From assembly GCF_965213655.1 (NCBI RefSeq), contig NZ_CBDBZT010000003.1:3022307-3086306 (forward strand): a DNA stretch of 64,000 bases, given 5' to 3'. This DNA comes from Candidatus Palauibacter sp. (GTDB lineage: Bacteria > Gemmatimonadota > Gemmatimonadetes > Palauibacterales > Palauibacteraceae). The notes under the pieces are model-generated. The model worked only from the letters and a program-made list of their open reading frames with translations, was not told the DNA's origin and made no database searches. Positions 14,198 to 35,614 of the stretch are shown piece by piece (the first letter of the stretch is position 1; each line of letters starts with the position of its first letter). The translations under genes and the position numbers were made by a program.

Positions 14198-14499
14198 CGC
14201 GAACTCCCACGGACCACGATGTGCCAAGGCTCGTCCGCCCACTTGCCCGGATCGTACCGGGCCGGGTAGCGCGCCGCCGCCCGAAGCACCGCGAGCATCG
14301 CCGGATCCCTCCGGCCCGCCAGCCATCCCGCGCCGTAGCAGACCGCGAAAACCAAGCCGCCCGCCACGAGCGAGGCCGTCGCGTTCCACACCGCGACCGC
14401 GAGCGTCGCTCCCATCAGGAACAGCCGCCGCTCGACGCCCAGCACCGTCAGCGGACGATTCAGCGCAGAGTAGCCGGCCCAGCGCGTCAGGCCTCGCAT
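14194..14499 (-). CDS. trbD: VirB3/TrbD-family small T4SS membrane protein
   Basis: Internal start MRGLTRWAGYSALNRPLTV, about 101 aa with a TM segment. 1-nt overlap (TGATG) with trbC, and its stop overlaps the trbE start. Confidence 0.7.
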   Translation of the reverse strand: MRGLTRWAGYSALNRPLTVLGVERRLFLMGATLAVAVWNATASLVAGGLVFAVCYGAGWLAGRRDPAMLAVLRAAARYPARYDPGKWADEPWHIVVRGSSR

Positions 14500-14786
14500 C
14501 AGAACAGCCAGCCCAGGAAGTTCACCGCCCCCACGGCCATCCCGATCCCGAAGATGATCCCGGCCAGCGTGCGCTTGCTCCCGCCCTCGCCGAACGCGAA
14601 CATCAGCCCGCCCACCACGATCGCGATCAGCGACAGGCCGCGCGCGATCGGTCCCGTGAACTGCGTCTGAAGCTCGTTCACCGCGTCCACCCACGGGCTC
14701 GTGCCCTGCGCGTGGAGCGCACCCGGCGTCAGCATGAGCAGCATGGCCCACGCAGCTGCCCGCATCATCGTCAGCAACCTTCTCAT
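14499..14786 (-). CDS. trbC: VirB2/TrbC-family pilin
   Basis: About 95 aa. MRRLLTMMRAAAWAMLLMLTPGALHA signal peptide followed by two hydrophobic helices, which is pilin-like. Confidence 0.7.
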   Translation of the reverse strand: MRRLLTMMRAAAWAMLLMLTPGALHAQGTSPWVDAVNELQTQFTGPIARGLSLIAIVVGGLMFAFGEGGSKRTLAGIIFGIGMAVGAVNFLGWLF

Positions 14787-15070
14787 CGTTTCCCGCCTTT
14801 CACTGAAGGGGTTGGTGGGCGACGACCTTCCCGCCGCCCCGGTTCGGTTTTCGGATCCCGCGAACGATCCGAGCCGTGCGTGTTTTCGTAGGCTTCCATG
14901 AAGGCCAGAATCCGCTCCACCGTCGCCAGCCTCGGCGAACGTCCCCGGCGCACGTCGCCCACGAACTTCCGGTCGCCGACCGCGCGTTCCCCGAACTCCG
15001 TTGGCGACATCCCCGTCCTTTGCAGGAATGCCGTCATGCGCCGCTCGAACTCCTTCGTCAGGTTCTTCAT
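14783..15070 (-). CDS. XRE/Cro-type HTH regulator, first gene of the trb operon
   Basis: Internal start MKNLTKEFERRMTAFLQRTGMSPTEFGERAVGD..TVERILAFMEAYE at 15068-15070. The stop overlaps the trbC start. Confidence 0.55.
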   Translation of the reverse strand: MKNLTKEFERRMTAFLQRTGMSPTEFGERAVGDRKFVGDVRRGRSPRLATVERILAFMEAYENTHGSDRSRDPKTEPGRREGRRPPTPSVKGGKR

Positions 15071-15113
15071 CGCCCGAAAACCAAAACACGGCGTGGGCAA
15101 CGAGCGCAAGATA

Positions 15114-15136
15114 GTGGGAAATACCCTATTTCCCAC
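15114..15136. promoter_or_regulatory. perfect palindrome GTGGGAAATA-ccc-TATTTCCCAC in the divergent intergenic region; candidate operator
   Basis: 10-bp perfect inverted repeat with a 3-nt spacer, about 45 bp upstream of the minus-strand HTH gene. Local GC is lower than the surroundings. Confidence 0.5.
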
Positions 15137-15378
15137 GTCGTTGAGAGACAACGAGTTGCGGAATCGGGTTTCCGCACCCCTCCGCCAGCGGGGCGGAAAA
15201 CACCCCGATGGCCTTGAACCACTGGGCTATCGTGGAATCAACCGACGCTATCCGACACGGTGCCTCGAAACTCCCGTGAAAGGGAATCGTGTGGGTGTCG
15301 GCTCGGGGGCTACCCCTACCTGTGGAAGGCGATCGTATTCGGATCGGTGTATGGATCCGATTGCGTTGGCATCGATAA

Positions 15379-15396: not shown

Positions 15397-16110
15397 ATGG
15401 GACGAAGAAGGAAAGATGCCGATCAACTGGACCCGGTGCGCCGGAGGCTGCTCAGGCTGTTGGACGAGAGCCGCACGACCATGCGCACGGCCTCGCAGGC
15501 AATCCAGCGAAACGACGCCTACCTGCACCAGTTCATCCACCGGGGCACGCCCAAGGTGCTGGCCGAGGACGACCGCGAGGCGCTCGCCGAGCATCTGGGG
15601 TGCAGCCCCGACCTGCTCAGGCACGACCGAAGGTTGACGCGCCGGGCGCGTCCGAATCCGGCGCCGCCGAGTCCCTACGCGGCTCCGAGGGGCTACAGCG
15701 CGGTGCCGGAGATCAATGTGCGCGCGTCGGCGGGTCCGGGCGCGTGGAACGACGACTTCGAGGAGGAGACCGACACCTGGCTGTTCGCCGATCCGCTCAT
15801 CCGCCACGAGTTCCGGGCCAGGCCAGAGGATCTGCGGATGATCACCGTGGACGGGGACTCGATGGAGCCGGTGCTCTCAAGCGGCGACCGCATCCTCATC
15901 GACGTGAGCCTCAAGGTGCCGGTCCCGCCCGGCATCTTCGTCATCTGGGACGGCATGGGGCTCGTCGCCAAGCGGATCGAGCACCTGCCCCACTCCGAGC
16001 CGCCCAAGGTCGTGCTCAAGTCCCTCAACCCCGAGTACGACAGCTACGAGTGTGCTGCCGAAGAGGTCCGCGTCGTCGGACGCGCCGTCTGGGCCTCCAG
16101 AAGGCTGTAG
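15397..16110 (+). CDS. CI/LexA-like repressor (XRE HTH plus S24 peptidase autocleavage domain)
   Basis: GDSMEP (Ser nucleophile) and VAKRI (Lys) motifs. HTH near the N-terminus. ATG at 15397; the track lists a GTG at 15379. Confidence 0.8.
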   Translation: MGRRRKDADQLDPVRRRLLRLLDESRTTMRTASQAIQRNDAYLHQFIHRGTPKVLAEDDREALAEHLGCSPDLLRHDRRLTRRARPNPAPPSPYAAPRGYSAVPEINVRASAGPGAWNDDFEEETDTWLFADPLIRHEFRARPEDLRMITVDGDSMEPVLSSGDRILIDVSLKVPVPPGIFVIWDGMGLVAKRIEHLPHSEPPKVVLKSLNPEYDSYECAAEEVRVVGRAVWASRRL

Positions 16111-16400
16111 GGCGCGACGTTCGGATGGCACCCGACTGCACGATCCCGGAAGCGCGGAACGGACCTCGCACCACGCGGTCGCTCCGTGAAGGACGTGCGT
16201 TATATTGACGGATTCGATCCCGTACTTGGAGACGGCAGCCATGAACAGCTTGCCCACGCAGACCGGCGGCATGTCGGCGGTCGGCGATTCGCCCGGCGAC
16301 GGGGCAACGGCTGGGCTGGCATGAGCGCTGCGCCGGTTGGCCCGCGGCCTCGCGGAGATCCAGAGCCGGCGATTTCCGGCGGCGTGCGGCAACTAAACCG

Positions 16401-16656
16401 ATGAGTCGCCGCGAGCGGCTGGTGCGGACCATCCTCGGCGGCCGCTCCGACGCGGAACATCCGCTTCGATGAACTGCGGGCGCTGATGCGGCATCTTGGA
16501 TTCAACGAGCGGGTGCGCGGCAGCCAGCACCTCTTCGACAAGGAAGGTGTCGTGGAGATCGTTAACCTTCAGAGCCGGGGCGGCCACGCCAAGCCCTACC
16601 AAGTGAGGCAGGTTCGGCGATTGATCCTCAAGTACAAGCTGGGAGCGGAAGACTGA
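16401..16656 (+). pseudogene. hicA: hicA-family toxin gene interrupted by a +1 frameshift near 16455
   Basis: Frame A reads MSRRERLVRTILGGRSDAEHPLR then stops. The +1 frame continues NIRFDELRALMRHLGFNERVRGSQHLFDKEGVVEIVNLQSRGGHAKPYQVRQVRRLILKYKLGAED, the HicA core. The junction is at gcg-g-aac. Confidence 0.6.
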
Positions 16657-16868
16657 TGTACAAATTCGAAATCATTCTCTATTGGAGCAACGAGGACGAG
16701 GCTTTCGTCGCGGAGGCTCCCGAGTTGCCCGGGTGCATGGCGTACGGAGACGATCAGGAGAGCGCGTTGGGGAACATCAAGGATGCGATGCAGTTCTGGA
16801 TCGACCGGGCACGGGAGTTGGGACGGCCCGTCCCGGAGCCCAAGGACGATCGTCTCATGCTTGCCTGA
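16656..16868 (+). CDS. hicB: HicB-family antitoxin
   Basis: 70 aa, MYKFEIILYWSNEDEAFVAEAPELPGCMAYGDDQESALGNIKDAM. TGATG overlap with the hicA stop. Confidence 0.7.
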   Translation: MYKFEIILYWSNEDEAFVAEAPELPGCMAYGDDQESALGNIKDAMQFWIDRARELGRPVPEPKDDRLMLA

Positions 16869-17148
16869 CTCGCCTCATGAAACATCCTCCTACTCCTCGG
16901 CCTCGTGCGCGACGCGGGTGGACCTCGACGTCGAGGCAACGCAGCACTTTGGGGAGACGGCGGCGGCGCGGAGGAAACGGAGCCGATCGAGGCCGCCAAC
17001 CGCGATGGTCGAGGCCCAACTCGAATCGGACGCAGCCGCCGAACGGATCACGGAGCACCGCAGAGGCCAAGCGGGAGGCCACGCCGATACAGGCGGGGGC
17101 CCTCCTCCGCCTCGGCGACCGGGCTGCCGTGGGCCGGTCGCTCTCCCC

Positions 17149-19791
17149 ATGAGGACGGTACCAACGCTCTGGCGCGATCAAGCGCCTAAGCCCGCTTGGG
17201 GCAAGTACCGTGACGAGACCGGCGAGTTCCACCCGCTGGAGCACCATTCCGCCGATGTCGCCGCATGCTTCGAGGCCTTGCTTCGCGATCCGGTACTCCG
17301 GGAGCGCTTCACGCAGGCGGCGGGCGCGGAGGGCTTCAGCCGCCTCGCGGAAGCGCGGCTCTGTCTCATCGCCTTTCTTCACGACTTCGGGAAGCTGAAC
17401 GTGGGGTTTCAGTTCGGCGTGCTGGGCGCTGGCTCGCCGGCACCAGAGAGGGTCAATCACATCAAGGCTGCACTCTGGGCTTGCGAGCGCATGGAAATGC
17501 TTCAGGCGCTCGGTCTCTTGGACATGGTCGCTTGGGGTGCCGAAGCACTGGAAGAATACCTCCGCGCAGCACTCGGCCATCATGGGACCCCGGGCCGTCA
17601 ACCGGTTTCACGGCGAGGTCCCGACAAGATCTGGCGCCCGTTCGGCGACTACGACCCGGGCGCGGCCGCGCAATTGCTGGCTCAACGCGCGCGCGAATGG
17701 TTCCCGGAGGCGTTCGAAGCAGGTCCCGAGCTCCCGCGCTCGCCCGCACTGGCCCATCTCTTCGCCGGAGTGCTGACGCTCGCCGACCAGCTCGGGTCGA
17801 ACGAGGAGTTCTTCCCCTTCTGCTCGTCCCCTGATCCGGATTACTTGCAACGGGCCCGTCAACACGCGCGGCGAGCGGTAGCTGAGTCGGGTTTCCGGCG
17901 AGAGGATTGGGCCAGCGAGGCGAGAGCTGCCGACTTTAGCGCGGACGCAGACTATCGGAAGGTCTTCGAGTTCGATTCCCCGCGGCCCTTGCAACGGGCT
18001 GTGGCCGATGTACCGGTCGACTGCCCGTTACTGATCCTTGAGAGCGAGACCGGGTCGGGCAAGACGGAAGCAGCGTTGATACGTTTTGCCAAGCTATGGA
18101 GGGCTGGAAAGGTCGACGGCCTGTACTTTGCGCTCCCTACCCGAGCTGCTGCAGCTCAACTCCATCGACGAGTCCACTCGGCGTTGGAGCGGTTGTTCCC
18201 AAGCCGCGCCCAGCTTTCGACGGTCTTGGCGGTGCCAGGCTATCTGAAGGTTGGAGAAACGCATGGGAAACGCGTCGGTCGGTTCGACGTGGCATGGACA
18301 GACGATCCAGGCGAGGCGGTGCTGCGTGCGCGATGGTCGGCAGAGAGCGCACGCAAGTTCCTGACTGCCACCGCGGCCGTGGGGACGGTCGACCAAGTCT
18401 TGCTTGCAGGGCTGCTGGCTAAGTGGGCCCATTTTCGAGGTGCTTCACTTGCTCGTAGTCTCCTCGTCGTCGACGAGGTTCACGCGAGCGACATCTATAT
18501 GAGCGAGGTGCTTCGCGCGTTGCTCCGTGATCATCTTGCCGTGGGTGGCCATGCGCTACTCATGTCCGCCACCCTCGGTTCCAGAGCGCGGGATGCCCTC
18601 GTCAAGAATGCCACCGCGCGTCGAGACCCGCCCGGTCTACAGCAAGCCAAGGCTCATCCCTACCCTGCGCTGACGCTGGCTCGACGAGATCAGACCTTCT
18701 CCGTCCAGAGCTTCGAGCATACGGGGTACACCAAACGGGTTGGGATGACCGCCGAGCCACTGTTGGGGCAGATTGCGGGTATCGCCTCCCGGGCGCTGGG
18801 TGAGGCGGAGAGGGGTGGCAAAGTTCTCGTCATCCTCAACACCGTCGGGCAGGCGCAGGCCGTCTTCGCGGAGGTCTGCGGTCAGGGAGGTCAGCGGCTC
18901 TGCCTTCAGGTGGAAGATGGCCCCGCCGTCCATCACAGCCGCTTCGCGGTGGAGGACAGGCGACTGTTGGACGCTGCCGTTGAGAAGACGCTAGGAAAGA
19001 AAAGGCCGGTGGGCCGTCAGATCGTGATCGGGACGCAGACCCTGGAGCAATCTTTGGATATCGATGCCGACCTGCTCATCTCCGACCTTTGTCCCGTGGA
19101 CGTTCTACTTCAACGAATCGGCAGGGTCCAGCGGCACGCCCGGACGGAGAGACCAGCTGGCTTCTCCCGCCCGCGCTGCGTGGTGCTCGTGCCGGCGAAG
19201 GGCCTCGATGCGGGTCTCGATGGAGGATTGCTCCGTTACGGTCTGGGCATGTCAAGGCATGGGGGGATCTATCGGGATCTCCGGGTGCTGGAACTGACCC
19301 GTCGGTTGATCGACACACGACCCCAATGGCTGATCCCGGGATCGAACCGGGAGCTCGTAGAGGAAGCGACGCACCCGGAACGGCTCGCGGCGATCGAGGA
19401 CGAGTTGGGCGGCCGCTGGCTGGACAAGGCGAACGAAGCCATCGGTAGAGCTGCGGCGGAACAGCTGACGGCGAGGGCGCACCTGCTGAACCGCGGCAGC
19501 CGATTCTCCGACCTAGTATTCCCTCCGCTTGACGAGCGAGTGCGGACTCGCTTGGGCGACGACGGTCCGCGCATTAGTCTCTCGGAGCCCGTCGAGGGAC
19601 CATTCGGCCGATCGGTCAAGACGTTCAATCTGCCGGCACACTTGTTCGGGAAACCCTCCGACCTCCCGTCCCGCGACGAGATCGAGTCGGCGAAGTTGGA
19701 GCGAACCGACGACGGGCTGTTTCTCCATGTAGGGTCGCGAACGTTTCCGTACGATCGCAGGGGGATCAGTCCGGCGACGGAGAAGGCATGA
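17149..19791 (+). CDS. cas3: Cas3 (HD nuclease plus SF2 helicase), type I-E
   Basis: HD motif LIAFLHDFGKLNVGFQ, helicase motif I LESETGSGKTEAAL, DEVH-like VVDEVHASD. Alternative upstream starts are 17008 and 16783 (the latter would overlap hicB). Confidence 0.9.
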   Translation: MRTVPTLWRDQAPKPAWGKYRDETGEFHPLEHHSADVAACFEALLRDPVLRERFTQAAGAEGFSRLAEARLCLIAFLHDFGKLNVGFQFGVLGAGSPAPERVNHIKAALWACERMEMLQALGLLDMVAWGAEALEEYLRAALGHHGTPGRQPVSRRGPDKIWRPFGDYDPGAAAQLLAQRAREWFPEAFEAGPELPRSPALAHLFAGVLTLADQLGSNEEFFPFCSSPDPDYLQRARQHARRAVAESGFRREDWASEARAADFSADADYRKVFEFDSPRPLQRAVADVPVDCPLLILESETGSGKTEAALIRFAKLWRAGKVDGLYFALPTRAAAAQLHRRVHSALERLFPSRAQLSTVLAVPGYLKVGETHGKRVGRFDVAWTDDPGEAVLRARWSAESARKFLTATAAVGTVDQVLLAGLLAKWAHFRGASLARSLLVVDEVHASDIYMSEVLRALLRDHLAVGGHALLMSATLGSRARDALVKNATARRDPPGLQQAKAHPYPALTLARRDQTFSVQSFEHTGYTKRVGMTAEPLLGQIAGIASRALGEAERGGKVLVILNTVGQAQAVFAEVCGQGGQRLCLQVEDGPAVHHSRFAVEDRRLLDAAVEKTLGKKRPVGRQIVIGTQTLEQSLDIDADLLISDLCPVDVLLQRIGRVQRHARTERPAGFSRPRCVVLVPAKGLDAGLDGGLLRYGLGMSRHGGIYRDLRVLELTRRLIDTRPQWLIPGSNRELVEEATHPERLAAIEDELGGRWLDKANEAIGRAAAEQLTARAHLLNRGSRFSDLVFPPLDERVRTRLGDDGPRISLSEPVEGPFGRSVKTFNLPAHLFGKPSDLPSRDEIESAKLERTDDGLFLHVGSRTFPYDRRGISPATEKA

Positions 19792-21449
19792 ACGTCGGGT
19801 CGCGGACAACGGACGTTGAGAACCACCGGAAATCATCATCGAGGAAAGCGTCGATGCACAATCTCCTTGCTGAGCAGTTGATCCGTTTCCGCAGCGTGGA
19901 CGGCTTGGTAGAGGTCGAGTCGCTGCCCGGCGTTTACGCAGCCATGGTTGCAGATCGCGTTGAGTCGTTCCCCGCATTGCGGCCGCACCAGCGGCACGCG
20001 TGGCATGCCTTCCTCGCGCAACTGGCCGTCTTGGCCTTGGTGCGAGCCCAGCGACACGAGCCGCCCCAACTCGAAGGCGAGTGGCGACAACTCCTCCGGG
20101 CGCTGACCCCCGCTTTCCGCGACGACGCACCTTGGTGCCTTGTCGTTCAAGACCCGTCTCGGCCGGCGTTCATGCAGTGTCCGGCCACCAGCGGGCTTGC
20201 CGAGTATAGGAAATCGGTGGACACGCCCGATGACCTGGATCTTCTCGTGACTTCCAAGAACCATGACTTGAAGTCGTCTGTTGCGGCCGAAGCTGCGGTG
20301 GACGATTGGCTATTCTCCTTGGTAAGCCTCCAAACAATGAGCGGGTATCCGGGTCGGGGGAACTACGGAGTTGCTCGCATGAACGGAGGATGGTCCTCGC
20401 GGCCCTGCTTGGGGCTTGCCCCGGCCGCTGGTGGTGTCGGTGCACATCTTGTCCATGACATCCGTCAAATGATTGATCAGCGGTCAGCTCTGCTCGAGCT
20501 ATACGAGCAGTATTTCCTAACCGAGAGCGGCGTAGGACTGACATGGCTCGAGCCTTGGGACGGGAGGCATTCGCTACGGCTCGTGGATCTCGATCCCTAC
20601 TTCATTGAGATCTGCCGACGAGTCCGAATGGTGAGCCACGGGCGGGGATTCGTAGCCCGCTGTGCTTCGTCAAGGGTCCGTCGAATCGCGGCGGCTGAGG
20701 CCAAAGGCGCTGTTGGCGACCACTGGACGCCCGTCAAAGTAGGCGACGAGACGAAGGCTTTCTCGGTTACCGAGGCGGGATTTCGTTACGACCGACTCGC
20801 CGAGTTGATTCTCGACCAGAGCGCCTACCTGCCCGTGCCGGCAATGTCCATCGGCTCGTCGGAGGGCGACTCTTGGCGCCTCGTAGCTCGCGGCGTAGCG
20901 GGGGGGCAAGGGGGTAAGACCAAGGGCTACCATGAGCGGGCCGACATCATCCTGTCCCCGCGAGTAGCCCGTTCGCTCTTTCTCGGAGGCGAGGACCGTC
21001 TGACCTTGGAGGAACTCGCAAGACGCCAACTCGCCGAGGTCAAGGAAGTCATCTCCGCCCTGCGCCGCGGGATCGCCATCGCAGCGAGTGGAGGGAAGGA
21101 CGCGGGACCCGTCGACAGGACCGATCGGAAGGCGGCGGCACCGTACGCCCTGCGGCTCGACTCGTTCGCCGATGCTCATTTTTTTGAAGCCCTCCAGTCG
21201 CGCTTTGGAGTACCCGAGGAGCTACAAGCCGGAGCGCGTCGCCGGTTTGTGCGACGCCTGATCAGACGGGCGGAAGCGCTGCTCGGGGAAGCGATTCGAA
21301 CGGTTTCTTCTTCGGCGATACATCGCTACAGGGCGGAGGCTCGCGCCAGGAGCGCATTTCACTGGCGCCTGCGCGGATCCGACAGCGTCTTCAGCGATCA
21401 ACCAGATATCTTTGAGACCGAAAGCGAGGAGGAGCCACATGAGACCTGA
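19788..21449 (+). CDS. cas8e: Cas8e/Cse1 (CasA), Cascade large subunit
   Basis: 553 aa with ATGA overlap to cas3. LRPHQRHAWHAFLAQL is a Cse1-type N-terminus. Confidence 0.85.
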   Translation: MNVGSRTTDVENHRKSSSRKASMHNLLAEQLIRFRSVDGLVEVESLPGVYAAMVADRVESFPALRPHQRHAWHAFLAQLAVLALVRAQRHEPPQLEGEWRQLLRALTPAFRDDAPWCLVVQDPSRPAFMQCPATSGLAEYRKSVDTPDDLDLLVTSKNHDLKSSVAAEAAVDDWLFSLVSLQTMSGYPGRGNYGVARMNGGWSSRPCLGLAPAAGGVGAHLVHDIRQMIDQRSALLELYEQYFLTESGVGLTWLEPWDGRHSLRLVDLDPYFIEICRRVRMVSHGRGFVARCASSRVRRIAAAEAKGAVGDHWTPVKVGDETKAFSVTEAGFRYDRLAELILDQSAYLPVPAMSIGSSEGDSWRLVARGVAGGQGGKTKGYHERADIILSPRVARSLFLGGEDRLTLEELARRQLAEVKEVISALRRGIAIAASGGKDAGPVDRTDRKAAAPYALRLDSFADAHFFEALQSRFGVPEELQAGARRRFVRRLIRRAEALLGEAIRTVSSSAIHRYRAEARARSAFHWRLRGSDSVFSDQPDIFETESEEEPHET

Positions 21450-21999
21450 CGATGTTCCGGCACCGGCGGGGGATCGCAGCGCGGATCTCGGTTTGCTCGT
21501 TGTACGGTTGGCCGCTCACATCGTGCGTCTCAAGCCGGGACCGGCGGCGGCGCTTCGCCGAGGGCCCCTCGAAGGCGAAGGGAGCGCAGCGCTCTGGCAG
21601 TTGATGGCGACCAACGGAATTGAGGGGCGGGGGGATGATCTGCCCAAGTGGGGCACCATCATGCAAGCTATCGCAATACTCACCCCGAGGGGCGGCGACG
21701 ACAGGAAGCGGTCCGCCCACGATGGAAGCAAGCCGATGGGCGCGGTGCTTGCCGAGGCTAACATATCGGAGTTGCGGCTTGCGCGACTCCTTGCGTCGCG
21801 GGGCGAGATGCGCCGGAAGCTAGCTGTCCGCACCTGTCGACGACTCGCCGCCAGTGAATCAGTCAGATTCGATCTGCGCACCCTCGCGAAGTTCATTTTG
21901 TGGGACAACGATGAGAGTCAAGCCCATTGGATCGCCCGTCACTACTATAGGATCCCCGCCAAGGCGAGAGACGCACAACTAGGAGATGCTAGCAAATGA
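21439..21999 (+). CDS. cse2: Cas11/Cse2 (CasB), Cascade small subunit
   Basis: About 186 aa. Alpha-helical and Arg-rich. Sits between cas8e and cas7. Confidence 0.7.
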   Translation: MRPDDVPAPAGDRSADLGLLVVRLAAHIVRLKPGPAAALRRGPLEGEGSAALWQLMATNGIEGRGDDLPKWGTIMQAIAILTPRGGDDRKRSAHDGSKPMGAVLAEANISELRLARLLASRGEMRRKLAVRTCRRLAASESVRFDLRTLAKFILWDNDESQAHWIARHYYRIPAKARDAQLGDASK

Positions 22000-23120
22000 C
22001 GACTTCCCGTTTCCTTCAGATCCACAGCCTCCACGGCTACTCTTCGGTGCTATTGAATCGCGACGATTCCGGGCTGGCAAAGCGCATCGAATACGGTGGG
22101 TGTATGCGTACCCGCATATCGTCGCAGTGTCTCAAGCGGCACTGGCGGGTCGCCGATAGCGTGCATGCGCTCACTGGTATCGACGGTGCCCCCACGGCGA
22201 CTCGCTCGCGCGAGATCGTCACTCTGGAAGTGGTGCGTCCGCTGCGCGAAGCCGAGCACGATGAGGATGTGGTGACCGTGGTGGACAAGGCCTTTCAAAC
22301 CGCCGTGTATGGGGACAGGGGCGACCAGCGTAGCAGCCGTCAGCCGCTCCTCCTGGGCTCGCCGGAGGTCGAATTCCTCGCCAAGGAGGCGAGCCGGATC
22401 GCGGCATTGCCACCGGCGGAGGCGAAGGCTGCCGCAAAGGCTTGGGCAAAGAACTCCCGGGCTAACATGAAGGCGATGAGAGAAGAGTGTCGCCTGCCCG
22501 GCGGACTCGTAGCGGCGCTGTTCGGTCGGATGGTGACGTCTGACGTGGAAGCGAACATCCATGCGGCCGTACACGTTGCCCACGCCTTCACCGTGCACCG
22601 CGAAGAGAGCGAGAGCGATTACTTCACGGTCGTTGACGATCTCCGGCGGATCGAGGATGATCCCGGGGCCGACCACATTGGCGAGACGGAACTCACCAGC
22701 GGTCTCTTCTACGGGTACGTGGTGGTCGACCGTAAAATCCTGCTGAATAATCTGGCCGGGGACATCGAGATGGCGGGGGAGGTCTGTCGACGCCTGATCC
22801 ACCTTATTGCCACGGTGACCCCCGGAGCCAAGTTGGGTTCGACCGCACCCTATGGGTACGCCAGTTGGATGATGGCGGAAGCCGGAGACCGTCAGCCGCG
22901 CAGCCTCGCTGGGGCCTTCCGGCGTCCATGCAGCGCCACCACTCAAGCCGCCGAGAAGGCGTTGAGCGGGCATCTTGCTCGTCTCGACGAGACCTACGAG
23001 ACGGGCGAGGTGAGGAGAGCTTTGAGTCTCAACTGTGCGGCGATGCCCAATGCGGAACTGGTTTCACTAAGCGGGCTCGCGGATTGGGCGGCTGACGTCA
23101 TGGCACGAGGGCAAACGTGA
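21996..23120 (+). CDS. cas7: Cas7e (CasC), Cascade backbone subunit
   Basis: 374 aa, MTTSRFLQIHSLHGYSSVLLNRDDSGLAKRIEYGGCMRTRISSQCLKRHWR. Confidence 0.85.
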   Translation: MTTSRFLQIHSLHGYSSVLLNRDDSGLAKRIEYGGCMRTRISSQCLKRHWRVADSVHALTGIDGAPTATRSREIVTLEVVRPLREAEHDEDVVTVVDKAFQTAVYGDRGDQRSSRQPLLLGSPEVEFLAKEASRIAALPPAEAKAAAKAWAKNSRANMKAMREECRLPGGLVAALFGRMVTSDVEANIHAAVHVAHAFTVHREESESDYFTVVDDLRRIEDDPGADHIGETELTSGLFYGYVVVDRKILLNNLAGDIEMAGEVCRRLIHLIATVTPGAKLGSTAPYGYASWMMAEAGDRQPRSLAGAFRRPCSATTQAAEKALSGHLARLDETYETGEVRRALSLNCAAMPNAELVSLSGLADWAADVMARGQT

Positions 23121-23830
23121 TGCGGTGGTTGCATTTGAGGTTCGAAGCTCCCCTCGCTTCGTTTGGAGGGGAGGCGATTGATGCCCGAGGCGTGATTCGC
23201 GACTTCCCCGCTCAATCCATGCTCACGGGGCTCTTCGCAAACGCCCTCGGCTGGACCCGGGCCATGAAGACGGAGCACCAGGCGCTTCAGGACCGCATCG
23301 TGTTCGCGGCCGCCCACGACGAGAGCCCCGACATTCGGCGTCTTACGGACTACCAAACGGCACAGCTCGGCAAAGCTGACAGGGCTTGGACGACAAGGGG
23401 GACTCCGGTGGGACGTGAGAGCGCTGCCAGTACTCTTGCCGGAGCACACCAGCGCTGGCGGGATTACCATTCGGACCTCCGACTCTCCCTCGTCGTGCGT
23501 CTTGAGCCCGCTGAATCAACCCCGACGCTTGAACAACTCGCGCAGGCTTTGAAACGGCCCGCCCGCCCGCTGTTTCTTGGTCGAAAGCCATGCCTCCCCT
23601 CGACCGCGATGTTCCGTGCTTGGGTGGACGAGGCGGATGCGCACAAGGCACTCAGCGCAGTCCTTCCGGCCGGCAGGGACTACTACGCCATGTGGCCACC
23701 CCCGGAGACGACACGGGGAGTGCACGCGACAAGGCTTGTTGCGGATGAACGAAACTGGGCGAGCGGTCTGCACGGCGGAGCTCGCAGAATCTGTACGGGC
23801 CGCGTGGATGGACGGGAGCGAGTGCGATGA
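23117..23830 (+). CDS. cas5: Cas5e (CasD)
   Basis: 237 aa, MMRWLHLRFEAPLASFGGEAIDARGVIRDFPAQSMLTGLFANALGW. Confidence 0.85.
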   Translation: MMRWLHLRFEAPLASFGGEAIDARGVIRDFPAQSMLTGLFANALGWTRAMKTEHQALQDRIVFAAAHDESPDIRRLTDYQTAQLGKADRAWTTRGTPVGRESAASTLAGAHQRWRDYHSDLRLSLVVRLEPAESTPTLEQLAQALKRPARPLFLGRKPCLPSTAMFRAWVDEADAHKALSAVLPAGRDYYAMWPPPETTRGVHATRLVADERNWASGLHGGARRICTGRVDGRERVR

Positions 23831-24612
23831 CGCACATGGTGTATCTGCCCTACAGCCACGAGGCGTTGGGTCGGTGGAGCGGCGGCAGGCGCTTGATGAG
23901 GCATGGGGTTTTCGATGAAGGATACGCTCTCCACGTTCTCCTGAGCGCCGTCTTCGGAAAGGGCATGCTGCAGCCGTTCCGAACGTTCCGGCCATCGAGA
24001 GGAGAAGGAGGCGCTCTATACGCGTATTCGGACCTAGACCAAGAGGCCCTCTGCGCTGTGGCCGAGGCCGCTGCACCGCCAGACGGCTTGGAAGTGGTGG
24101 ATGTTGCCGAACTCCGAACGAAGCCCATGCCTGACCGTTTCTCGCCCGGCCAACGGTTGGGGTTCGACGTTCGGATTCGCCCGGTGCGGAGACTCGCACG
24201 CGACCTGTCTGACTCGCAGTCGGGTAAAGTGATCCGCAAGGGCAGCGAAATCGACGCCTTCAGGCTGGAGTTGTTGCGCCGGTCCCCAGATGGATGGAAG
24301 GCGTCCGAGGAAGCTCCGGCCGCCCGCGTTTCCCGTGACCATGTCTATGCGGCTTGGCTGGCGGAACGGCTCGCGGGTGCTGCGGAAGTCGACGCTCGGT
24401 CCTTTCGGCTGGCATCTTTCCATCGGCTCCGCGTCATCCGCGGAGATGGGCGGGGTCCCGAAGGGCCGGACTCCGTCGTGCATGGCGACTGTGTCGTCGA
24501 GGACCCTGCCTCGTTCGCCGCCATGCTCGCCAAGGGTGTGGGGAGGCACAGGGCATACGGCTACGGCATGTTGATCATCCGTCCGCCGGGCACGCCTCCC
24601 CGAAGCCGATAG
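23827..24612 (+). CDS. cas6e: Cas6e (CasE) crRNA endoribonuclease
   Basis: 261 aa, Gly-rich C-terminus. Position in the operon. Confidence 0.8.
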   Translation: MTHMVYLPYSHEALGRWSGGRRLMRHGVFDEGYALHVLLSAVFGKGMLQPFRTFRPSRGEGGALYAYSDLDQEALCAVAEAAAPPDGLEVVDVAELRTKPMPDRFSPGQRLGFDVRIRPVRRLARDLSDSQSGKVIRKGSEIDAFRLELLRRSPDGWKASEEAPAARVSRDHVYAAWLAERLAGAAEVDARSFRLASFHRLRVIRGDGRGPEGPDSVVHGDCVVEDPASFAAMLAKGVGRHRAYGYGMLIIRPPGTPPRSR

Positions 24613-24618
24613 CGACTC

Positions 24619-25500
24619 ATGCTGATTGGACGTTTGGGGCTGGATACCGCGCGAATACCGCATGCCGACCGGCACGGGTTACTGTGGCTTGCCCGAGGGA
24701 CACTCACCGTACGAGATGGCACGTTGTCTTTCGAACGGATGGAGAAGGCCTCGTCGGGCGACGCGCTGGAACGGGGACGGTACACCATCCCGTTCCAAGG
24801 TGTCTCGATGATCCTTATGGGCCCCGGTTCGACCGTCAGCCACGATGCCCTTCGACTCCTTGCTCGGCACGGTACCGCTCTCGCGGCTGTCGGGACTGAC
24901 GGAGTTCGAATGTACACCGCCCCGCCGCTGATGTCCGGTCGATCGGGTCTCGCGAGAGTCCAAGCACGCTGCTGGGCGGACGAAGAGGCGCGATTGGACA
25001 TTGCGCGGCACATGTATTCCTGGCGCCTCGGAGAAGTGTTCGCTCACCGCAGTATCTCCGCCCTGCGGGGCATGGAGGGGGCACGTATGAGGGAGACTTA
25101 CCGCCTCATCGCGCAGCAGGTAGGGATTGAGTGGCGCGGGCGCCGTTACGATCGACAGCGGCCGGGGGCCGCCGACCTACCGAATCAAGCGCTAAACCAC
25201 GCCTCAAGCGCGGTGGAGGCCGCTGCGGCCGTCGCTGTGGCTTCCACCGCGACGATCCCTCAACTCGGCTTCATCCATGAGGACGCGAGCCAATCGTTCG
25301 TCCTTGATATCGCCGACCTCTTTCGCGACTCGGTCCTGATTCCGGCCGCTTTTCGCGCGGCAAAGCAGGCTTCTCAAGGGGCGTACGCGAACATCGAGAG
25401 GCTGGCCAGGGAGGAAACGGGCACTACCCTCGCAAGGACCGGGACGATCTCCAAGATGATCACCCGGATCAAACAACTGTTCCCCGACGATGCGGACTGA
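24619..25500 (+). CDS. cas1: Cas1, type I-E integrase
   Basis: 293 aa, MLIGRLGLDTARIPHADRHGLLWLARGTLTVRDGTLSF... Confidence 0.9.
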   Translation: MLIGRLGLDTARIPHADRHGLLWLARGTLTVRDGTLSFERMEKASSGDALERGRYTIPFQGVSMILMGPGSTVSHDALRLLARHGTALAAVGTDGVRMYTAPPLMSGRSGLARVQARCWADEEARLDIARHMYSWRLGEVFAHRSISALRGMEGARMRETYRLIAQQVGIEWRGRRYDRQRPGAADLPNQALNHASSAVEAAAAVAVASTATIPQLGFIHEDASQSFVLDIADLFRDSVLIPAAFRAAKQASQGAYANIERLAREETGTTLARTGTISKMITRIKQLFPDDAD

Positions 25501-25505
25501 GTCAG

Positions 25506-25853
25506 ATGCCGGCGACAGTTGTCGTGACAAGGGATGTTGAAGCTCGGTACCGCGGTTTTCTCGCCTCGGTGATGCTGGAGGTAGCGCCTGGCGTCTATGT
25601 GGGTCCGAACGTCTCCAAAGCGGTCCGTGAGCGGATATGGGGCGTGCTGGCCAAGTGGTTCAGCTTGCTCGGACGTGGAGCCATCACGATGGTACATCCC
25701 GACGCCTCAGCCCCCGGCAAACTCAGAATTTATCAGTTAGGAGACCCCCCAAAGGAGATCTGGGAGGCGGATGGGGTACTATTGGTCAGACATGGTTCGA
25801 CCGACGAGTCCGATCCAACCTTGGACGCGGTGAGCGAACCGCGCCACGAATGA
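25506..25853 (+). CDS. cas2: Cas2, type I-E
   Basis: 115 aa, MPATVVVTRDVEARYRGFLASVMLEVAPGVYVGPN... Confidence 0.85.
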   Translation: MPATVVVTRDVEARYRGFLASVMLEVAPGVYVGPNVSKAVRERIWGVLAKWFSLLGRGAITMVHPDASAPGKLRIYQLGDPPKEIWEADGVLLVRHGSTDESDPTLDAVSEPRHE

Positions 25854-25899
25854 TACGAGAAACACATATAAATACCTTCAGTCGACCTGGAAGTAAAGA
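25854..25899 (+). promoter_or_regulatory. short AT-rich CRISPR leader between cas2 and the first repeat
   Basis: tgatacgagaaacacatataaataccttcagtcgacctggaagtaaagag is strikingly AT-rich for this genome and lies directly between the cas2 stop and repeat 1. Confidence 0.5.
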
Positions 25900-28683
25900 G
25901 GTTCCCCCGCACGGGCGGGGATAGACCGACAGGACGCGGGGCGAGCACGAGATGCCTGGGGGTTCCCCCGCACGGGCGGGGATAGACCGCGTTCACGCGA
26001 GCTTACAGACCGTGGCATCCAGGTTCCCCCGCACGGGCGGGGATAGACCCGTGGACAACCGGATCGCCGATTGGGCGTGTCAGGTTCCCCCGCACGGGCG
26101 GGGATAGACCCCCGGCGTAGCTGACGGCGGTCCCAACCGACACGGTTCCCCCGCACGGGCGGGGATAGACCCTATCGGGGCGAGTTGGCCCGCAGCTACC
26201 GGGTGGTTCCCCCGCACGGGCGGGGATAGACCTACAAGGACCGGCGCGGCGTCTCGAAGTCGGCGGGTTCCCCCGCACGGGCGGGGATAGACCCCGCCCA
26301 GCTCGACGCAGCGGCAGATTGTCCGGGGTTCCCCCGCACGGGCGGGGATAGACCCTCGCGCCACGGCTGGCCTGCATCGACGAACATGGTTCCCCCGCAC
26401 GGGCGGGGATAGACCGCCTGCAACCGACCGACCGACCGCTCTGCCGCTGGTTCCCCCGCACGGGCGGGGATAGACCGCAAGCAGGCATCCCACCCGAGGA
26501 AATGGGCGGGGTTCCCCCGCACGGGCGGGGATAGACCCTCGATGCCGATGCGCTGGCCAAGGCGCTCCACGGTTCCCCCGCACGGGCGGGGATAGACCCG
26601 GAAGTTCGGTGGGACGGGGGCGGCACAGCATGGTTCCCCCGCACGGGCGGGGATAGACCCCCGTTCGACGCAGTGCGCCAGCAACTCCTCCAGGTTCCCC
26701 CGCACGGGCGGGGATAGACCGCCGGATACGGGGTTCGAGGCGCGCGCGAAAGCGGTTCCCCCGCACGGGCGGGGATAGACCCGTAACCGCGACAACCCCA
26801 AGGGGGCATCATGGGGTTCCCCCGCACGGGCGGGGATAGACCCGAGTACCGCTGCGGGACCGCGCCAGCCTCCAGGGTTCCCCCGCACGGGCGGGGATAG
26901 ACCGCCGAAGAAACTCCCACACCAAGTTGCCACGGTGGTTCCCCCGCACGGGCGGGGATAGACCGCTGAACGCCTCGCCGCCGTTGGGCGGGGCCGGGGT
27001 TCCCCCGCACGGGCGGGGATAGACCGACCGGGCATGTGATTCCTTGCGAGCCGACCCGGGTTCCCCCGCACGGGCGGGGATAGACCGCGGCCCGCTACTA
27101 CGGGATCGTCACCGCCGGGGGTTCCCCCGCACGGGCGGGGATAGACCGACTGCACAGAATGCAGGGAGTGCCTGTATTGCGGTTCCCCCGCACGGGCGGG
27201 GATAGACCCGAGGGCGCGTGAGCGTACGCATATTCCAAGGTGGTTCCCCCGCACGGGCGGGGATAGACCGCTGGTAGACCCGCGCACCTACAAGAGCATG
27301 GTGGTTCCCCCGCACGGGCGGGGATAGACCCCGGACGCAGGTTGACCGGCTGTACTCGAAGGTGGTTCCCCCGCACGGGCGGGGATAGACCGGAATCGAC
27401 GGAAGAGCGGATCCGGCGCGAGGCGGTTCCCCCGCACGGGCGGGGATAGACCTTGGGAGTCCGCAAAGGCCGAGATCATACGCGCGGTTCCCCCGCACGG
27501 GCGGGGATAGACCGTCCAAGCTCATCGGGATCGAGGTCGGAGCGACGGTTCCCCCGCACGGGCGGGGATAGACCGAGGTAGCCGGCGGCGAAGGCGAGGA
27601 TGGGCGTGGTTCCCCCGCACGGGCGGGGATAGACCCATCGGGACCGGAGTTCCCCGGCACGAGATCCGGGTTCCCCCGCACGGGCGGGGATAGACCCGCT
27701 GGAAGGAACACTACCGGCGAGACCACGGCGGTTCCCCCGCACGGGCGGGGATAGACCTCCTACCGAACGACTCGGCGCATCCGGTCCCTGGGTTCCCCCG
27801 CACGGGCGGGGATAGACCCGCGCCATCCGCCTGCATGAAGACGCTCGCCGTGGTTCCCCCGCACGGGCGGGGATAGACCCCCGGCAGGACCACGGACGCG
27901 CGTTCCGTGCCGGGTTCCCCCGCACGGGCGGGGATAGACCCCCGATAAGCGCGCTTTGGCTCGCGGCGCTCCGGGTTCCCCCGCACGGGCGGGGATAGAC
28001 CCCCCCCCAGCTGGAGCACCAATTTACCGCTAGCGGGTTCCCCCGCACGGGCGGGGATAGACCGTCGGTGCGTGACGAGCGGAGCAAGGCGTGGCAGGTT
28101 CCCCCGCACGGGCGGGGATAGACCGCGGGCGGCCGGGACGTGGGAGGATGCGGACAAGGTTCCCCCGCACGGGCGGGGATAGACCTCGGGCATAGCTCGA
28201 TCAAGCCCCTCACGGGTTGGTTCCCCCGCACGGGCGGGGATAGACCCGGTCCTCAGGCGGTCGGCTCGGCAGAGTCGTAGGTTCCCCCGCACGGGCGGGG
28301 ATAGACCGTGGGGAATCAAGGTCCAAGGGCAAGCGGGTGAGGTTCCCCCGCACGGGCGGGGATAGACCCTACACGCAGATCAGCCGGAAGCTGGTCGTGA
28401 TGGTTCCCCCGCACGGGCGGGGATAGACCCTCCCCAACGTGCCACACCTGGAGCGTATCGCCGGTTCCCCCGCACGGGCGGGGATAGACCCGTAGTACCG
28501 CCTACACCGCCGACGCTCTGTCCGGTTCCCCCGCACGGGCGGGGATAGACCTCACCACCCGTGCAGGCCCAGCGCCCGACGATTGGTTCCCCCGCACGGG
28601 CGGGGATAGACCCAGCGTATTCCAATCGGCCACTACTTGGGGCAGGGTTCCCCCGCACGGGCGGGGATAGACCGATGATCGGC
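25900..28683 (+). CRISPR. type I-E CRISPR array, about 46 copies of GGTTCCCCCGCACGGGCGGGGATAGACC with spacers of about 32-34 nt
   Basis: Perfect 28-nt repeat at 61-nt period through at least the first 19 units (25900, 25961, 26022, ..., 26998). The last canonical unit is at 28656-28683. The repeat has the I-E stem CCCCGC..GCGGGG and the same orientation as the E. coli I-E repeat. Confidence 0.95.
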
Positions 28684-28716
28684 GTACACAAGAGGGCGTC
28701 ATGCGGCGGCCGCCGT

Positions 28717-28746
28717 CGCCGTTCAATGGACGGGTTTGGTCTGCTT
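28717..28746 (+). repeat. degenerate terminal CRISPR repeat (trailer end)
   Basis: After one more 33-nt spacer, ..GTTCaatggACGGGtttGGtctgc keeps GTTC, ACGGG and GG of the repeat but is otherwise diverged. The IS3 end begins directly after it. Confidence 0.4.
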
Positions 28747-28843
28747 TGAAGTTGCCCCGCTTTCACGGACACCCTTCCATTGGGTCAACCAAGGAGGTGT
28801 GTCGTGGCGGCAAGAGCGGGGTGGTATCCGCGGGAGTACCGGG
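28747..28843 (+). mobile_element. IS3-family left-end fragment (about 97 bp) truncated by the IS21 insertion
   Basis: About 97 bp nearly identical to the left end of the complete IS3 copy at 31649-31745 (tgaagttgccccgctttcacggacaccc..gtgtcgtggcggcaagagcgggg..gagtaccggg). Similarity stops exactly where TGTCAGG of IS21 begins. Confidence 0.6.
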
Positions 28844-28998
28844 TGTCAGGTGATTACCGTGTCGGTAGCGGGTGAAAAAGTGACAGGTATGGCGGCCGAA
28901 AAAGTGACACATCGGTCGTTCCCGTAAGGCCGGGTGGAGCAGCCGCTCCGTCCGGGAACGCAGAACTTGGCGTCTTCCACTTCGAGAGGGAGGCGCCG

Positions 28999-30033
28999 GT
29001 GATCGGATGGGAGCGACGCGTGCTTTTGCGACACTACCTGGACGAAGGACTGACGGTGACGGAGATCTCCCGCGAACTGGGGATCAGCCGTCAGACGATC
29101 TATCGCTGGATCAACGAGGGGGAGCTGGACCGGGACCTCGAGGAGGTCCGCTACGGTCCGCGGCCCCCGGTGCCCACGAAGCTGGATCCGTACAAGGCGA
29201 TCGTGCGGGAGCGGCTTGAGGAGTATCCGGAACTGACGGCGGTCCGGCTGCTGGCGGAGATCCGTGCAGCGGGATACCCCGGCGGCTACACGCAGCTCAG
29301 GGAGTACGTCCGGAAGGTCCGGCCCCGTGCTCCGGCCGACCCTCTCGTGCGGTTCGAGACGGACCCGGGAGTGCAGGGCCAGGTGGACTTCGCCCACTTC
29401 CGCTTCCCGTGGGGCCGCCGCTACCTGCTTCTGGTCGTGCTCGGCTACTCGCGGCTGTTGTGGCTCCGGTTCTACCCGCGGCAGGACATGTCGACGCTGC
29501 TCAAGGGTCTGGAGGCGGCCTTCGGCTTCTTCGGAGGCGTGCCGCGGGAGCTCCTGTTCGACCAGATGAAGAGCGTGATCATCCGGGATCTGAGGGGCGA
29601 GGGCGGCCGCGTGACCGAGAACGCCGAGTTCCTCCGCTTCGCCGCACACTGGGGCTTCCGGCCCAGGGCCTGCCGGCCCTACCGGGCGAAGACGAAGGGG
29701 AAGGTCGAGCGCCCCATCGGCTACGTTCGCAAGAGCTTCACCTACGGTCGCAGCTTCGCCGGCGACGCGGACCTGAACGCGCAGGCCGAGTGGTGGCTCG
29801 GGAGCGTGGCCAACGTCCGGATCCACGGCACCACGCGAGAGCGGCCCGCCGAACGGTTCGAACGCGACGAGCGCCAAGTGCTCAGGCCGCTCGCCCACCG
29901 GCCCTACCACTCGCTCGCGCTGCCCGCCGAACGGGAGCCCGAGAAGGTTCGCCGGCTCGCCTCGGTGCCCCGGGTCACCATCGAACGGCGTCCCCTGGCC
30001 GAGTACGACCGCCTCGCCGCGGGGGTCTCGTGA
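28999..30033 (+). CDS. istA: IS21-family transposase IstA
   Basis: 344 aa with an N-terminal HTH (LTVTEISRELGISRQTIYRWINEG) and a DDE core (..VDFAHFRFPWG..LLVVLGYSRLLW..). Confidence 0.85.
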   Translation: MIGWERRVLLRHYLDEGLTVTEISRELGISRQTIYRWINEGELDRDLEEVRYGPRPPVPTKLDPYKAIVRERLEEYPELTAVRLLAEIRAAGYPGGYTQLREYVRKVRPRAPADPLVRFETDPGVQGQVDFAHFRFPWGRRYLLLVVLGYSRLLWLRFYPRQDMSTLLKGLEAAFGFFGGVPRELLFDQMKSVIIRDLRGEGGRVTENAEFLRFAAHWGFRPRACRPYRAKTKGKVERPIGYVRKSFTYGRSFAGDADLNAQAEWWLGSVANVRIHGTTRERPAERFERDERQVLRPLAHRPYHSLALPAEREPEKVRRLASVPRVTIERRPLAEYDRLAAGVS

Positions 30034-30839
30034 CGCCCGCCAAGCGGCCAAGCCGCCGCGACCGGATCCGTGCCCAGCTCGCCGACCTCAAGCTCCCCGG
30101 CGCGCTCGAGGCCCTCGACCCCATCCTCTCCAGCGTCGACGGAGGCCGCTTCACCGCCGCCGAGGCGATCGAGAAGCTCCTCGCCGCCCAGATCGACCTG
30201 CGCAACAACCGCAGGCTCCAGGCCGCCATGCGCGCCTCCCGGCTCCCAGCCGTGAAGACCCTGGCCGACTTCGACTTCAGCTTCCAGCCCTCGATCAAGC
30301 GCGAGCAGATCGACTCCCTGCACGAACTCTCCTTCCTCGACCGCAAGGAGAACGTCGTCTTCCTCGGGCCCCCGGGCGTCGGGAAGACCCATCTGGCCAT
30401 CTCGCTCGCCGTCGCCACCGCCGAGCGCGGACGGCGCATCTACTACGGCGCCCTGGCCGACCTCATCACCTCTCTCGAGGAGGCACAGGCCGCAGGCCGA
30501 CTCCAGCAACGGCTCAAGGTCCTCACCCACCCGGCCCTGTTGATCGTCGACGAGATCGGATACGTCCCCATCTCGCGCACCGGAGCCACGCTCTTCTTCC
30601 AACTCGTCAACCGGCGCTACGAGACCGGCTCCACCATCCTCACCTCCAACCAGAGCTTCGAGGAGTGGGGCCGCATCTTCGGCGACGAGGTCATGGCCAC
30701 CGCACTGATCGACCGGCTGCTCCACCACTGCCACATCGTCAACATCCGCGGTAACAGCTACCGCATGAGGCAGCACGCCGATGTCTTCAACACCCTCCGC
30801 AACAACCCCTCGACCACGGAGGCCGAGACGTCACCTTGA
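30030..30839 (+). CDS. istB: IS21-family helper ATPase IstB
   Basis: GTG at 30030 overlaps the istA stop (GTGA). Walker A FLGPPGVGKTHLA, Walker B LLIVDEIGY. The 476-aa track ORF is a GC-driven upstream extension. Confidence 0.85.
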   Translation: MTPAKRPSRRDRIRAQLADLKLPGALEALDPILSSVDGGRFTAAEAIEKLLAAQIDLRNNRRLQAAMRASRLPAVKTLADFDFSFQPSIKREQIDSLHELSFLDRKENVVFLGPPGVGKTHLAISLAVATAERGRRIYYGALADLITSLEEAQAAGRLQQRLKVLTHPALLIVDEIGYVPISRTGATLFFQLVNRRYETGSTILTSNQSFEEWGRIFGDEVMATALIDRLLHHCHIVNIRGNSYRMRQHADVFNTLRNNPSTTEAETSP

Positions 30840-30910
30840 GGCTCGTCCCCTCCGGCCGGGTGTCACATTTTCACCCGCCGCATGTGTCACATTTTCGCCC
30901 GCCGTTGACA

Positions 30911-35551: not shown

Positions 35552-35614
35552 CAATGTGAGAAACCTGTCGCCGTCGGATTACCATGCGCCGACTCGAGTA
35601 GGGAGGATCACACG

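Follow-up and report, generated by a model that had tools for sequence, protein, structure and literature searches.

A complete type I-E CRISPR-Cas module in Candidatus Palauibacter, probably within the variable region of an island that contains a conjugative element

The window analysed here, a stretch of 64,000 nucleotides, is chromosomal DNA of the uncultured marine Gemmatimonadota Candidatus Palauibacter, because proteins identical to its Cas3 and its S24-family repressor lie on a 3.37-Mb contig of that organism. Among plasmids it matches only a 44-bp piece of trbB and fragments of insertion sequences (IS), and it is not a known plasmid. The window carries a complete type I-E immune system of the CRISPR-Cas kind (clustered regularly interspaced short palindromic repeats and their associated proteins), in which a hicAB toxin-antitoxin pair, eight cas genes and a repeat array form one module. 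This module probably lies in the variable region that follows the S24 gene of an island containing an integrative and conjugative element (ICE). A cargo region of this kind, away from the chromosomal site that the same cas lineage occupies in relatives, is the most likely setting of the cas locus, and capture of the module as island or ICE cargo is inferred from it. The locus is assigned to the variable region of an inserted island because a near relative, L010, lacks the whole block and because homology of the conjugative backbone ends at the stop codon of the S24 gene.

The type I-E system

Gene identities in the window are based on NCBIfam and Pfam profile searches and on sequence matches to the PDB, with curated or gathering cut-offs applied; loci of relatives are labelled L001 to L010 and L091, and coordinates without a label are window positions (Table 1). 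Eight open reading frames (ORFs) match the eight type I-E families of NCBIfam in the canonical order, cas3-cse1-cse2-cas7-cas5-cas6e-cas1-cas2, and all but Cse1 pass the Pfam gathering thresholds. By their coordinates these genes span 17149-25853 and adjoin the array on the same strand. The original prediction, made from the letters of the window, that all eight genes are intact is borne out by these matches and by the full length of the ORFs. Its starting point of 16401 has to be moved, as a hicA-like gene with a frameshift has its ATG there and cas3 begins at 17149. The cas3 start is placed there because homology with relatives sets in only at residue 127 of a longer ORF, and the 880-residue protein that results is 100% identical to a database entry. 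The ATGA overlap, earlier given for the whole operon, is found at only three of the seven junctions; the remaining four are one GTGA overlap, an overlap of 11 nt between cse1 and cse2, and gaps of 6 and 5 nt. The start of cse2 is the ATG at 21439, preceded by GAGGAGGAG.

The Cas3 protein covers the Cas3_HD profile from its first to its last position (1-207 of 207), carries the DEAD and Cas3 C-terminal domains of Pfam, and passes the cut-offs of both TIGR01587 and TIGR01596. Its Walker A motif (GSGKT) and its DEVH motif are kept. Cse1 aligns with positions 1-499 of the 504 of TIGR02547 and has the expected position and size; its score of 66 bits is just under the curated cut-off of 70.05, and searches of Pfam and of PDB sequences gave no match. 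Since the score falls below the cut-off and these matches are lacking, Cse1 is, as judged from its sequence, a divergent large subunit. The gene is orthologous across all of the related loci. The small subunit, Cse2, scores 35.5 with TIGR02548 (cut-off 28.5) and 28.1 with PF09485 (cut-off 24.6). None of the eight cas ORFs is shortened, their profiles are covered almost completely, and the ratio of nonsynonymous to synonymous substitution rates (dN/dS) is 0.08-0.30 in each gene when compared with its L091 orthologue. The type I-E system is complete and under purifying selection. It is also maintained and probably active, to judge from the full-length ORFs, the Cas3 motifs, the low dN/dS and the 46 identical repeats of the array.

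The G+C content of the window is 63-72%, about 68% around the leader, and the leader itself is the short AT-rich stretch that had been noticed at 25854-25899, with a length of 46 bp and a G+C content of 37%. A leader of 46 bp is also present in L001, and at the junction with the first repeat (A)AAGA is kept in four of five related loci, L006 having CAAGA. The estimate of about 46 perfect repeats and about 45 spacers turns out to be exact: the repeat, GGTTCCCCCGCACGGGCGGGGATAGACC, is present in 46 copies with zero mismatches between 25900 and 28673, and no further copy is found in the window outside the array or on the minus strand. The repeat-spacer period is 61 nt, and 62 nt once. All 45 internal spacers are unique, 44 of them 33 nt and one 34 nt long, and their mean G+C content of 67% is near the host value, which fits targets adapted to similar hosts. 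The repeat is predicted to fold into a hairpin (-17 kcal/mol) that has a GC stem of 6 bp, as is typical of type I-E. The base that follows the 28 fixed repeat positions is C in 23, G in 18, T in five and A in none of the 46 copies; the same bias is seen in the arrays of L001-L006, where A occurs only zero to three times per array. In E. coli the 29th repeat position is a fixed G, derived from the protospacer adjacent motif (PAM), while the window repeat has C, G or T there. By analogy, a non-A base at the PAM-proximal position would be a reasonable guess.

Mobile DNA has removed the older end of the array, because no degenerate terminal repeat was recognised when one was looked for after repeat 46, and the truncated trailer runs into a fragment of an IS3 element, an IS21 element and a second IS3 element. 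The earlier statement that IS elements cap the trailer is therefore correct. The IS21 element has multiple terminal repeats and a target duplication, TTACCG, and is separated from the second IS3 element by about 730 bp of low-GC DNA. The orfB gene of that IS3 element is split over two frames (31990-32885). A trailer is visible in three of the related arrays, the window included, and in 3/3 it is interrupted by foreign DNA 26-73 nt past the last repeat, without a degenerate terminal repeat: by IS21 in L006 (21729-21780), by a truncated S24 gene in L003 (21545-21571) and by the IS3/IS21 nest in the window (28674-28747). An ancestral IS21 insertion common to the window and L006 was considered and rejected, as the junctions differ and the insertions are independent. 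Likewise, the 40 nt that remain of the trailer seemed to resemble S24 DNA, as they would in L003, but this was rejected because the score is at the level of shuffled sequences.

Based on what is known of the family, the array would be transcribed from the 46-bp leader, and the precursor CRISPR RNA would be cut by Cas6e at the repeat hairpin. Cse1, Cse2, Cas7, Cas5 and Cas6e would form the Cascade complex that finds matching DNA, which Cas3 would then degrade, while Cas1 and Cas2 would add new spacers at the leader end.

The suggestion that the spacers target the conjugative block of the window, plasmids or phages found no support in the databases searched. Self matches are lacking elsewhere in the window, and self-targeting of the type IV secretion system (T4SS) block was rejected since the best match, 21 of 25 nt, is at chance level. 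No match was found in the 50,697 phage records of INPHARED, and the 72,556 plasmids of PLSDB gave only other CRISPR arrays, through the repeat, or noise at E values of about 0.8. A set of 300 spacers, made up of those of the window and 254 from relatives, has no credible match in about 90 related loci (about 840 kb); the two best candidates extend to only 22 and 26 of 33 nt and were rejected. The contigs of IMG/VR gave no hit to the repeat or to seven spacers that belong to the eight newest, and no spacer is common to the related arrays. The repeat matches in PLSDB show that the repeat family also occurs in arrays on large plasmids or chromids of Bosea, Sphingomonas, Azospirillum, Tistrella and Streptomyces, so that similar type I-E arrays are often plasmid-borne in other phyla.

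The island, its junction and the competing histories

An apparently empty site, of the kind whose search had been proposed, is seen in L010, which matches the window from 49148 to 38527 at 92-96% nucleotide identity and has nothing in common with it to the left of 38527. The break lies 37 nt into a DUF1801 gene, which is intact in L010 and of which the window keeps only the first 37 nt; past the junction L010 continues with DUF1801, DUF1295, flavin reductase and TRAP transporter genes. On the other side of the junction, L010, a contig of 322 kb, has an orthologue, 95% identical, of the serine-hydrolase gene at 38652-40145, and the genes of the window from about 38.6 kb rightward are ordinary metabolic ones. 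The block without a counterpart in L010 measures at least 38.5 kb and includes the T4SS, the S24 gene, hicAB, the cas genes, the array, the IS elements and the TIR and PDC-S01 genes. Only its right junction is visible, as the left end of the element lies outside the window.

The ICE backbone spans 1530-15151, with the S24 repressor gene divergent from the T4SS module, and it includes a mating-pair-formation set (VirB2, 3, 4, 6, 8, 9, 10 and 11) together with the type IV coupling protein (T4CP). The cas locus was correctly described as lying downstream of a conjugation module, here of the VirB/Trb type and on the minus strand, and its divergent repressor. The backbone is collinear, at 78% nucleotide identity, with the L008 element of Ca. 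Palauibacter rhopaloidicola. The S24 gene is the last conserved gene of the backbone: homology to L007, L008 and L009 extends to 16111-16119, the position of the S24 stop codon, and no further, and the DNA beyond it differs at each of these loci and in the window and is often defence-related. The cas locus lies between this backbone end and the island junction. The original prediction had offered two options, that the system rides on the mobile element or that it guards a chromosome beside which the element inserted later; the L010 comparison and the backbone end at S24 favour a system that rides on or with the island, and the option of an older guarded chromosome fares poorly. A hicAB-cas-array module whose lineage is otherwise chromosomal in the genus would, according to this reading of its history, have come to lie in the variable region of the ICE-containing island.

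Three Palauibacter genomes (L001, L002 and L006) have the same cas lineage at one conserved chromosomal site, where a deacetylase-like gene, MenF/D/B/A/E, an aminotransferase gene and a small nucleotidyltransferase gene precede cas3. Their cas operons are collinear with that of the window at 70-80% nucleotide identity, their repeat differs from the window repeat at three positions, and their arrays have at least 64, at least 64 and 48 repeats, respectively. Their homology with the window begins precisely with cas3, and these loci have no hicAB. The closest Cas3, at 83% identity, is that of L091, and none higher was found besides the window's own. L091 also has the hicA-hicB-cas3 linkage, and about 550 bp upstream of its hicA is a piece homologous to the region upstream of the T4CP gene in the window. 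The hicB gene of the window is 85% identical to the gene directly 5' of the L091 cas3, with a dN/dS of 0.12. In L003 and L004, a truncated S24 gene joins the array 26 nt past the last repeat and is followed by the T4CP-upstream region and AlpA. A small two-gene pair stands directly upstream of cas3 in each class of context, hicA/hicB in the window (16401-16868) and in L091 (1514-1980), and an NTP_transf_2 nucleotidyltransferase gene with an 80-codon gene at the menaquinone site (about 9100-10000 in L001, L002 and L006). The comparison of composition that had been suggested was made on the G+C content of third codon positions, which is 0.70 in the cas genes, 0.90 in the ICE backbone, 0.85 in the chromosome and 0.74 in the right-hand cargo; the cas value is nearest to that of the right-hand cargo and differs from those of the ICE backbone and the chromosome.

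A more specific form of this history is that a widespread marine ICE family captured a module of chromosomal type, hicAB with the type I-E system, in a hotspot past S24, and that the memory held in the 46 repeats travels by conjugation. This is a possibility to be held tentatively. The 18-nt core GCGCAGATCGTGCAGTCC may have played a part in the capture. The module is bracketed by copies or fragments of it, and it also adjoins an integrase gene in a related element. The ICE family is found in Gemmatimonadota and, going by source names, also in metagenome-assembled genomes of Chloroflexi and Gammaproteobacteria.

Several observations weigh against placing the module among the cargo of an inserted, mobile island. 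No integrase, relaxase or attachment-site (att) repeats are found in the window, beyond whose left edge the element continues, and the boundaries of the ICE are therefore undefined. The L010 contig ends 9.5 kb past the junction, and a rearrangement instead of a simple insertion is possible. The cas loci of L001, L002 and L006 follow a menaquinone operon and are T4SS-free; the conserved T4SS-free site that had been named as an argument against mobility thus exists, and it is not the site of the window copy. Three genes near the intact cas operon, virB4, hicA and the IS3 orfB, have frameshifts, which may be real decay of the island or long-read indel errors. The spacer searches yielded no protospacer, so that neither activity nor a PAM can be inferred from them. 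Finally, among 83 further metagenomic loci of the S24 family, none (0/83) has cas genes or type I-E repeats in its flanks.

This last result also agrees with a composite island, in which hicAB-cas-array, the IS elements and the TIR and PDC-S01 genes gathered beside the ICE in a recombination hotspot, outside its att sites and without being transferred. The different DNA past S24 in each locus would be expected here as well, if S24 were the end of the element and what follows were local flank. The composition of the cas genes unlike that of the ICE backbone, the IS3 and IS21 fragments, which speak of repeated rearrangement at the trailer, and a 28-nt patch after the S24 stop codon that resembles a recombination scar all point the same way. 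However, ICE-family DNA adjoins related type I-E modules in L091 and in L003/L004, and in L008 the backbone is followed by cargo and then by the same 114-nt element that the window has at 35.25 kb, which suggests that DNA of the element family brackets the cargo. Moreover, in the comparison with L010 the ICE and the rest of the block share a single junction. A composite origin is a serious but rather unlikely alternative to cargo of the ICE-containing island.

An old chromosomal CRISPR-Cas locus that guarded the genome before a conjugative element inserted upstream of it would agree with the conserved T4SS-free position in three Palauibacter species, and the divergence of the cas operons (70-88% nucleotide identity) indicates no very recent transfer. 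This history is very improbable, since the window copy is away from the menaquinone site and has hicAB, S24 and the T4SS upstream of it, since L010 lacks cas and all DNA up to 38527 while its DUF1801 gene is intact, and since no other Cas3 above 83% identity was found even though serine-hydrolase orthologues reach 95%. Least probable of all is a decaying relic, carried passively in a degenerating island: the frameshifts in the neighbouring hicA, virB4 and IS3 orfB, the array trailer truncated by IS elements and the lack of spacer targets in the phage, plasmid and viral searches would suit it, but 8/8 cas ORFs have their full length and cover their profiles almost entirely, dN/dS is 0.08-0.30, the leader junction is conserved and 46/46 repeats are identical, whereas decaying arrays gather repeat mutations.

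Other features of the island and recurring elements

The features of the window are collected in Table 1. The region upstream of the T4CP gene (5810-6235, minus strand) is conserved at 70-79% nucleotide identity in L003 (22114-22537), L007 (18181-18451), L008 (490-915) and L091 (856-963). It precedes different genes in different elements, namely T4CP, AlpA, integrase or small ORFs, and may be a regulatory module or one resembling an origin of transfer (oriT). AlpA and tyrosine integrase genes are present in related loci.

The metagenome contig L009, 60 kb long, has in its positions 1-20750 an 85-88% identical S24 gene and no T4SS nearby. Genes of the BREX (bacteriophage exclusion) system, encoding a PglX-like methyltransferase and BrxL, lie upstream of S24, and methyltransferase, helicase and SMODS/SLATT genes lie downstream; L009 is a defence island around the same repressor.

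Table 1. Positions of the annotated features in the window and the evidence for each
Feature	Position	Strand	Evidence or remark
ArdC	1530-2564	-	Pfam
VirB11/TrbB	2764-3768	-	Pfam; PDB VirB11/CpaF matches
T4CP	3771-about 5810	-	Pfam
ORF without family name	6097-7029	-	
VirB8	7026-7697	-	Pfam
VirB6/TrbL	7713-8702	-	Pfam
ORF without family name	8716-9633	-	
VirB10/TrbI	about 9660-10874	-	Pfam
VirB9/CagX	10871-11746	-	Pfam
VirB4, frameshift near 13934-13944	11746-14197	-	Pfam; split over two frames
VirB3	14197-14499	-	Pfam
VirB2/TrbC	14502-14786	-	Pfam
Small gene	about 14834-15070	-	
S24-peptidase (LexA/CI-like) repressor	15397-16110	+	Pfam Peptidase_S24; exact 237-aa database entry
hicA-like toxin gene, 1-nt insertion, frameshift near 16455	16401-16655	+	Two-frame match to intact 84-aa L091 gene; weak Pfam HicA_toxin
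hicB antitoxin gene	16656-16868	+	Pfam HicB_lk_antitox 2.5e-9
cas3, 880 aa, HD nuclease and superfamily 2 helicase	17149-19791	+	NCBIfam, Pfam, PDB (4q2c, 6e-50)
cse1/cas8e, divergent large subunit (from sequence)	19788-21449	+	TIGR02547 E = 3e-18
cse2/cas11, small subunit, 186 aa, separate gene	21439-21999	+	TIGR02548, PF09485
cas7e	21996-23120	+	TIGR01869 8e-95, 318 bits; PF09344
cas5e, GTG start	23117-23830	+	TIGR01868 5e-47, 160 bits; PF09704
cas6e	23827-24612	+	PF08798 88.5 bits; TIGR01907 41.4 bits, slightly below cut-off of 45.2
cas1e	24619-25500	+	TIGR03638 3e-84, 282.6 bits
cas2e	25506-25853	+	TIGR01873 7e-25, 87 bits
Leader, ending AAAGA at repeat 1	25854-25899	+	Sequence
CRISPR array, 46 perfect 28-nt repeats and 45 spacers	25900-28673	+	Repeat search
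Orphan 46th spacer-length stretch and 40 nt, truncated trailer	28674-28746	+	Sequence
IS3-family left-end fragment, 97 nt	28747-28843	+	92% identical to IS3 left end 31650-31746
IS21-family element	28860-30910	+	Pfam rve, IstB_IS21; inverted repeats; IstA 28999-30033, IstB about 30075-30839
IS3-family element	31650-33004	+	Pfam HTH_Tnp_1, rve, rve_3 in different frames; inverted repeats
TIR-like protein	33106-34080	-	PADLOC 4.7e-12
Conserved 114-nt structured element	35247-35360	+	nhmmer, alignment
DUF4143/PDC-S01 ATPase	35537-36964	+	PADLOC, Pfam
Island/chromosome junction	38526-38527	.	Comparison with near relative L010

No integrase was found in the right-hand cargo. An ORF of 469 codons at 37113-38522 was considered as a terminal recombinase and rejected, as its translation is of low complexity, and an ORF of 415 codons on the opposite strand has only a weak beta-propeller match. 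A scan of the window gave no tRNA genes and no Rfam families, and no direct repeats of at least 11 nt link the left edge of the module to the right end of the island. On the chromosomal side, a second ATPase of the PDC-S01 type is encoded at 42041-43213, besides the island copy, and L010 (7093-8012) has an extra 268-codon gene between the chromosomal DUF4143/PDC-S01 ATPase gene and a TauD-like gene that is missing from the window (42004-42056).

The 114-nt element forms a long predicted hairpin in which seven of the 24 predicted pairs show compensatory changes, and its 18-nt core is nearly invariant. It has no match in Rfam. Further copies are located in L007 (4235-4348), L008 (15886-15997 and 15685-15781) and L009 (9829-9942), only in loci that carry S24 and always in the orientation of S24. 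Only four loci have one, and the idea that it universally marks boundaries in the element family was rejected. In L007 the core alone is also present at 18722-18741, 37 nt upstream of an integrase gene and in direct orientation with the full element, from which it is 14.4 kb away. The 28-nt patch of the window (16118-16145), 9 nt past the S24 stop codon, is made up of two stretches from the 114-nt element, inverted and permuted, and scores 26 as against 17 +/- 2.4 for shuffled sequences. Patch and lone core could reflect either a core of the att type or a scar of recombination; in the case of the patch, such a scar would lie at the boundary between backbone and cargo.

Known systems and significance

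The module has the same eight families in the same order as the type I-E systems of E. coli K-12 and Thermobifida fusca, with the same 61-nt period and with the leader between cas2 and the array. The GC stem-loop of the repeat is alike, the repeat resembles that of E. coli (TTCCCCGC...GCGGGGAT.AACC), and the window Cas3 matches the solved type I-E Cas3 structures 4q2c and 4qqw. The window system differs from these in its divergent Cse1, in its leader of only 46 bp and in its host, an uncultured Gemmatimonadota.

Defence cargo in ICE hotspots is well known, hotspot 5 of SXT/R391 being an example. The island resembles SXT/R391 in having a conserved backbone and a variable region with defence systems that differ from copy to copy: CRISPR-Cas, TIR and PDC-S01 in the window, BREX and SMODS/SLATT around S24 in L009. 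Unlike SXT/R391, it belongs to an unrelated element family, and the bounds of its hotspot are defined only on the S24 side. The pKLC102-like ICEs of P. aeruginosa carry type I-C CRISPR-Cas, all copies of which are ICE-borne, with an att site at tRNA-Lys (PMC4669384). As in those elements, a complete class 1 CRISPR-Cas system with its array probably sits in a conjugative island that is absent from related genomes. In contrast to them, the system here is of type I-E, its lineage is mostly chromosomal, no att site or integrase is found in the window, and the linkage is rare among members of the element family.

The system itself is a textbook type I-E system, and its genes are already annotated as Cas in public records. 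Palauibacterales are abundant both in sponges and in sediments of the sea, and the paper that describes this makes no mention of CRISPR (PMC10469786). Practical use will be limited until targets of the spacers are found. What is added here is the context, a fixed chromosomal site in some Palauibacter as against an ICE-containing defence island in this one. If the ICE indeed carries the module as cargo, the case would exemplify the spread of CRISPR immunity by conjugation in an uncultured marine phylum, and it would illustrate how chromosomal CRISPR loci are mobilised.

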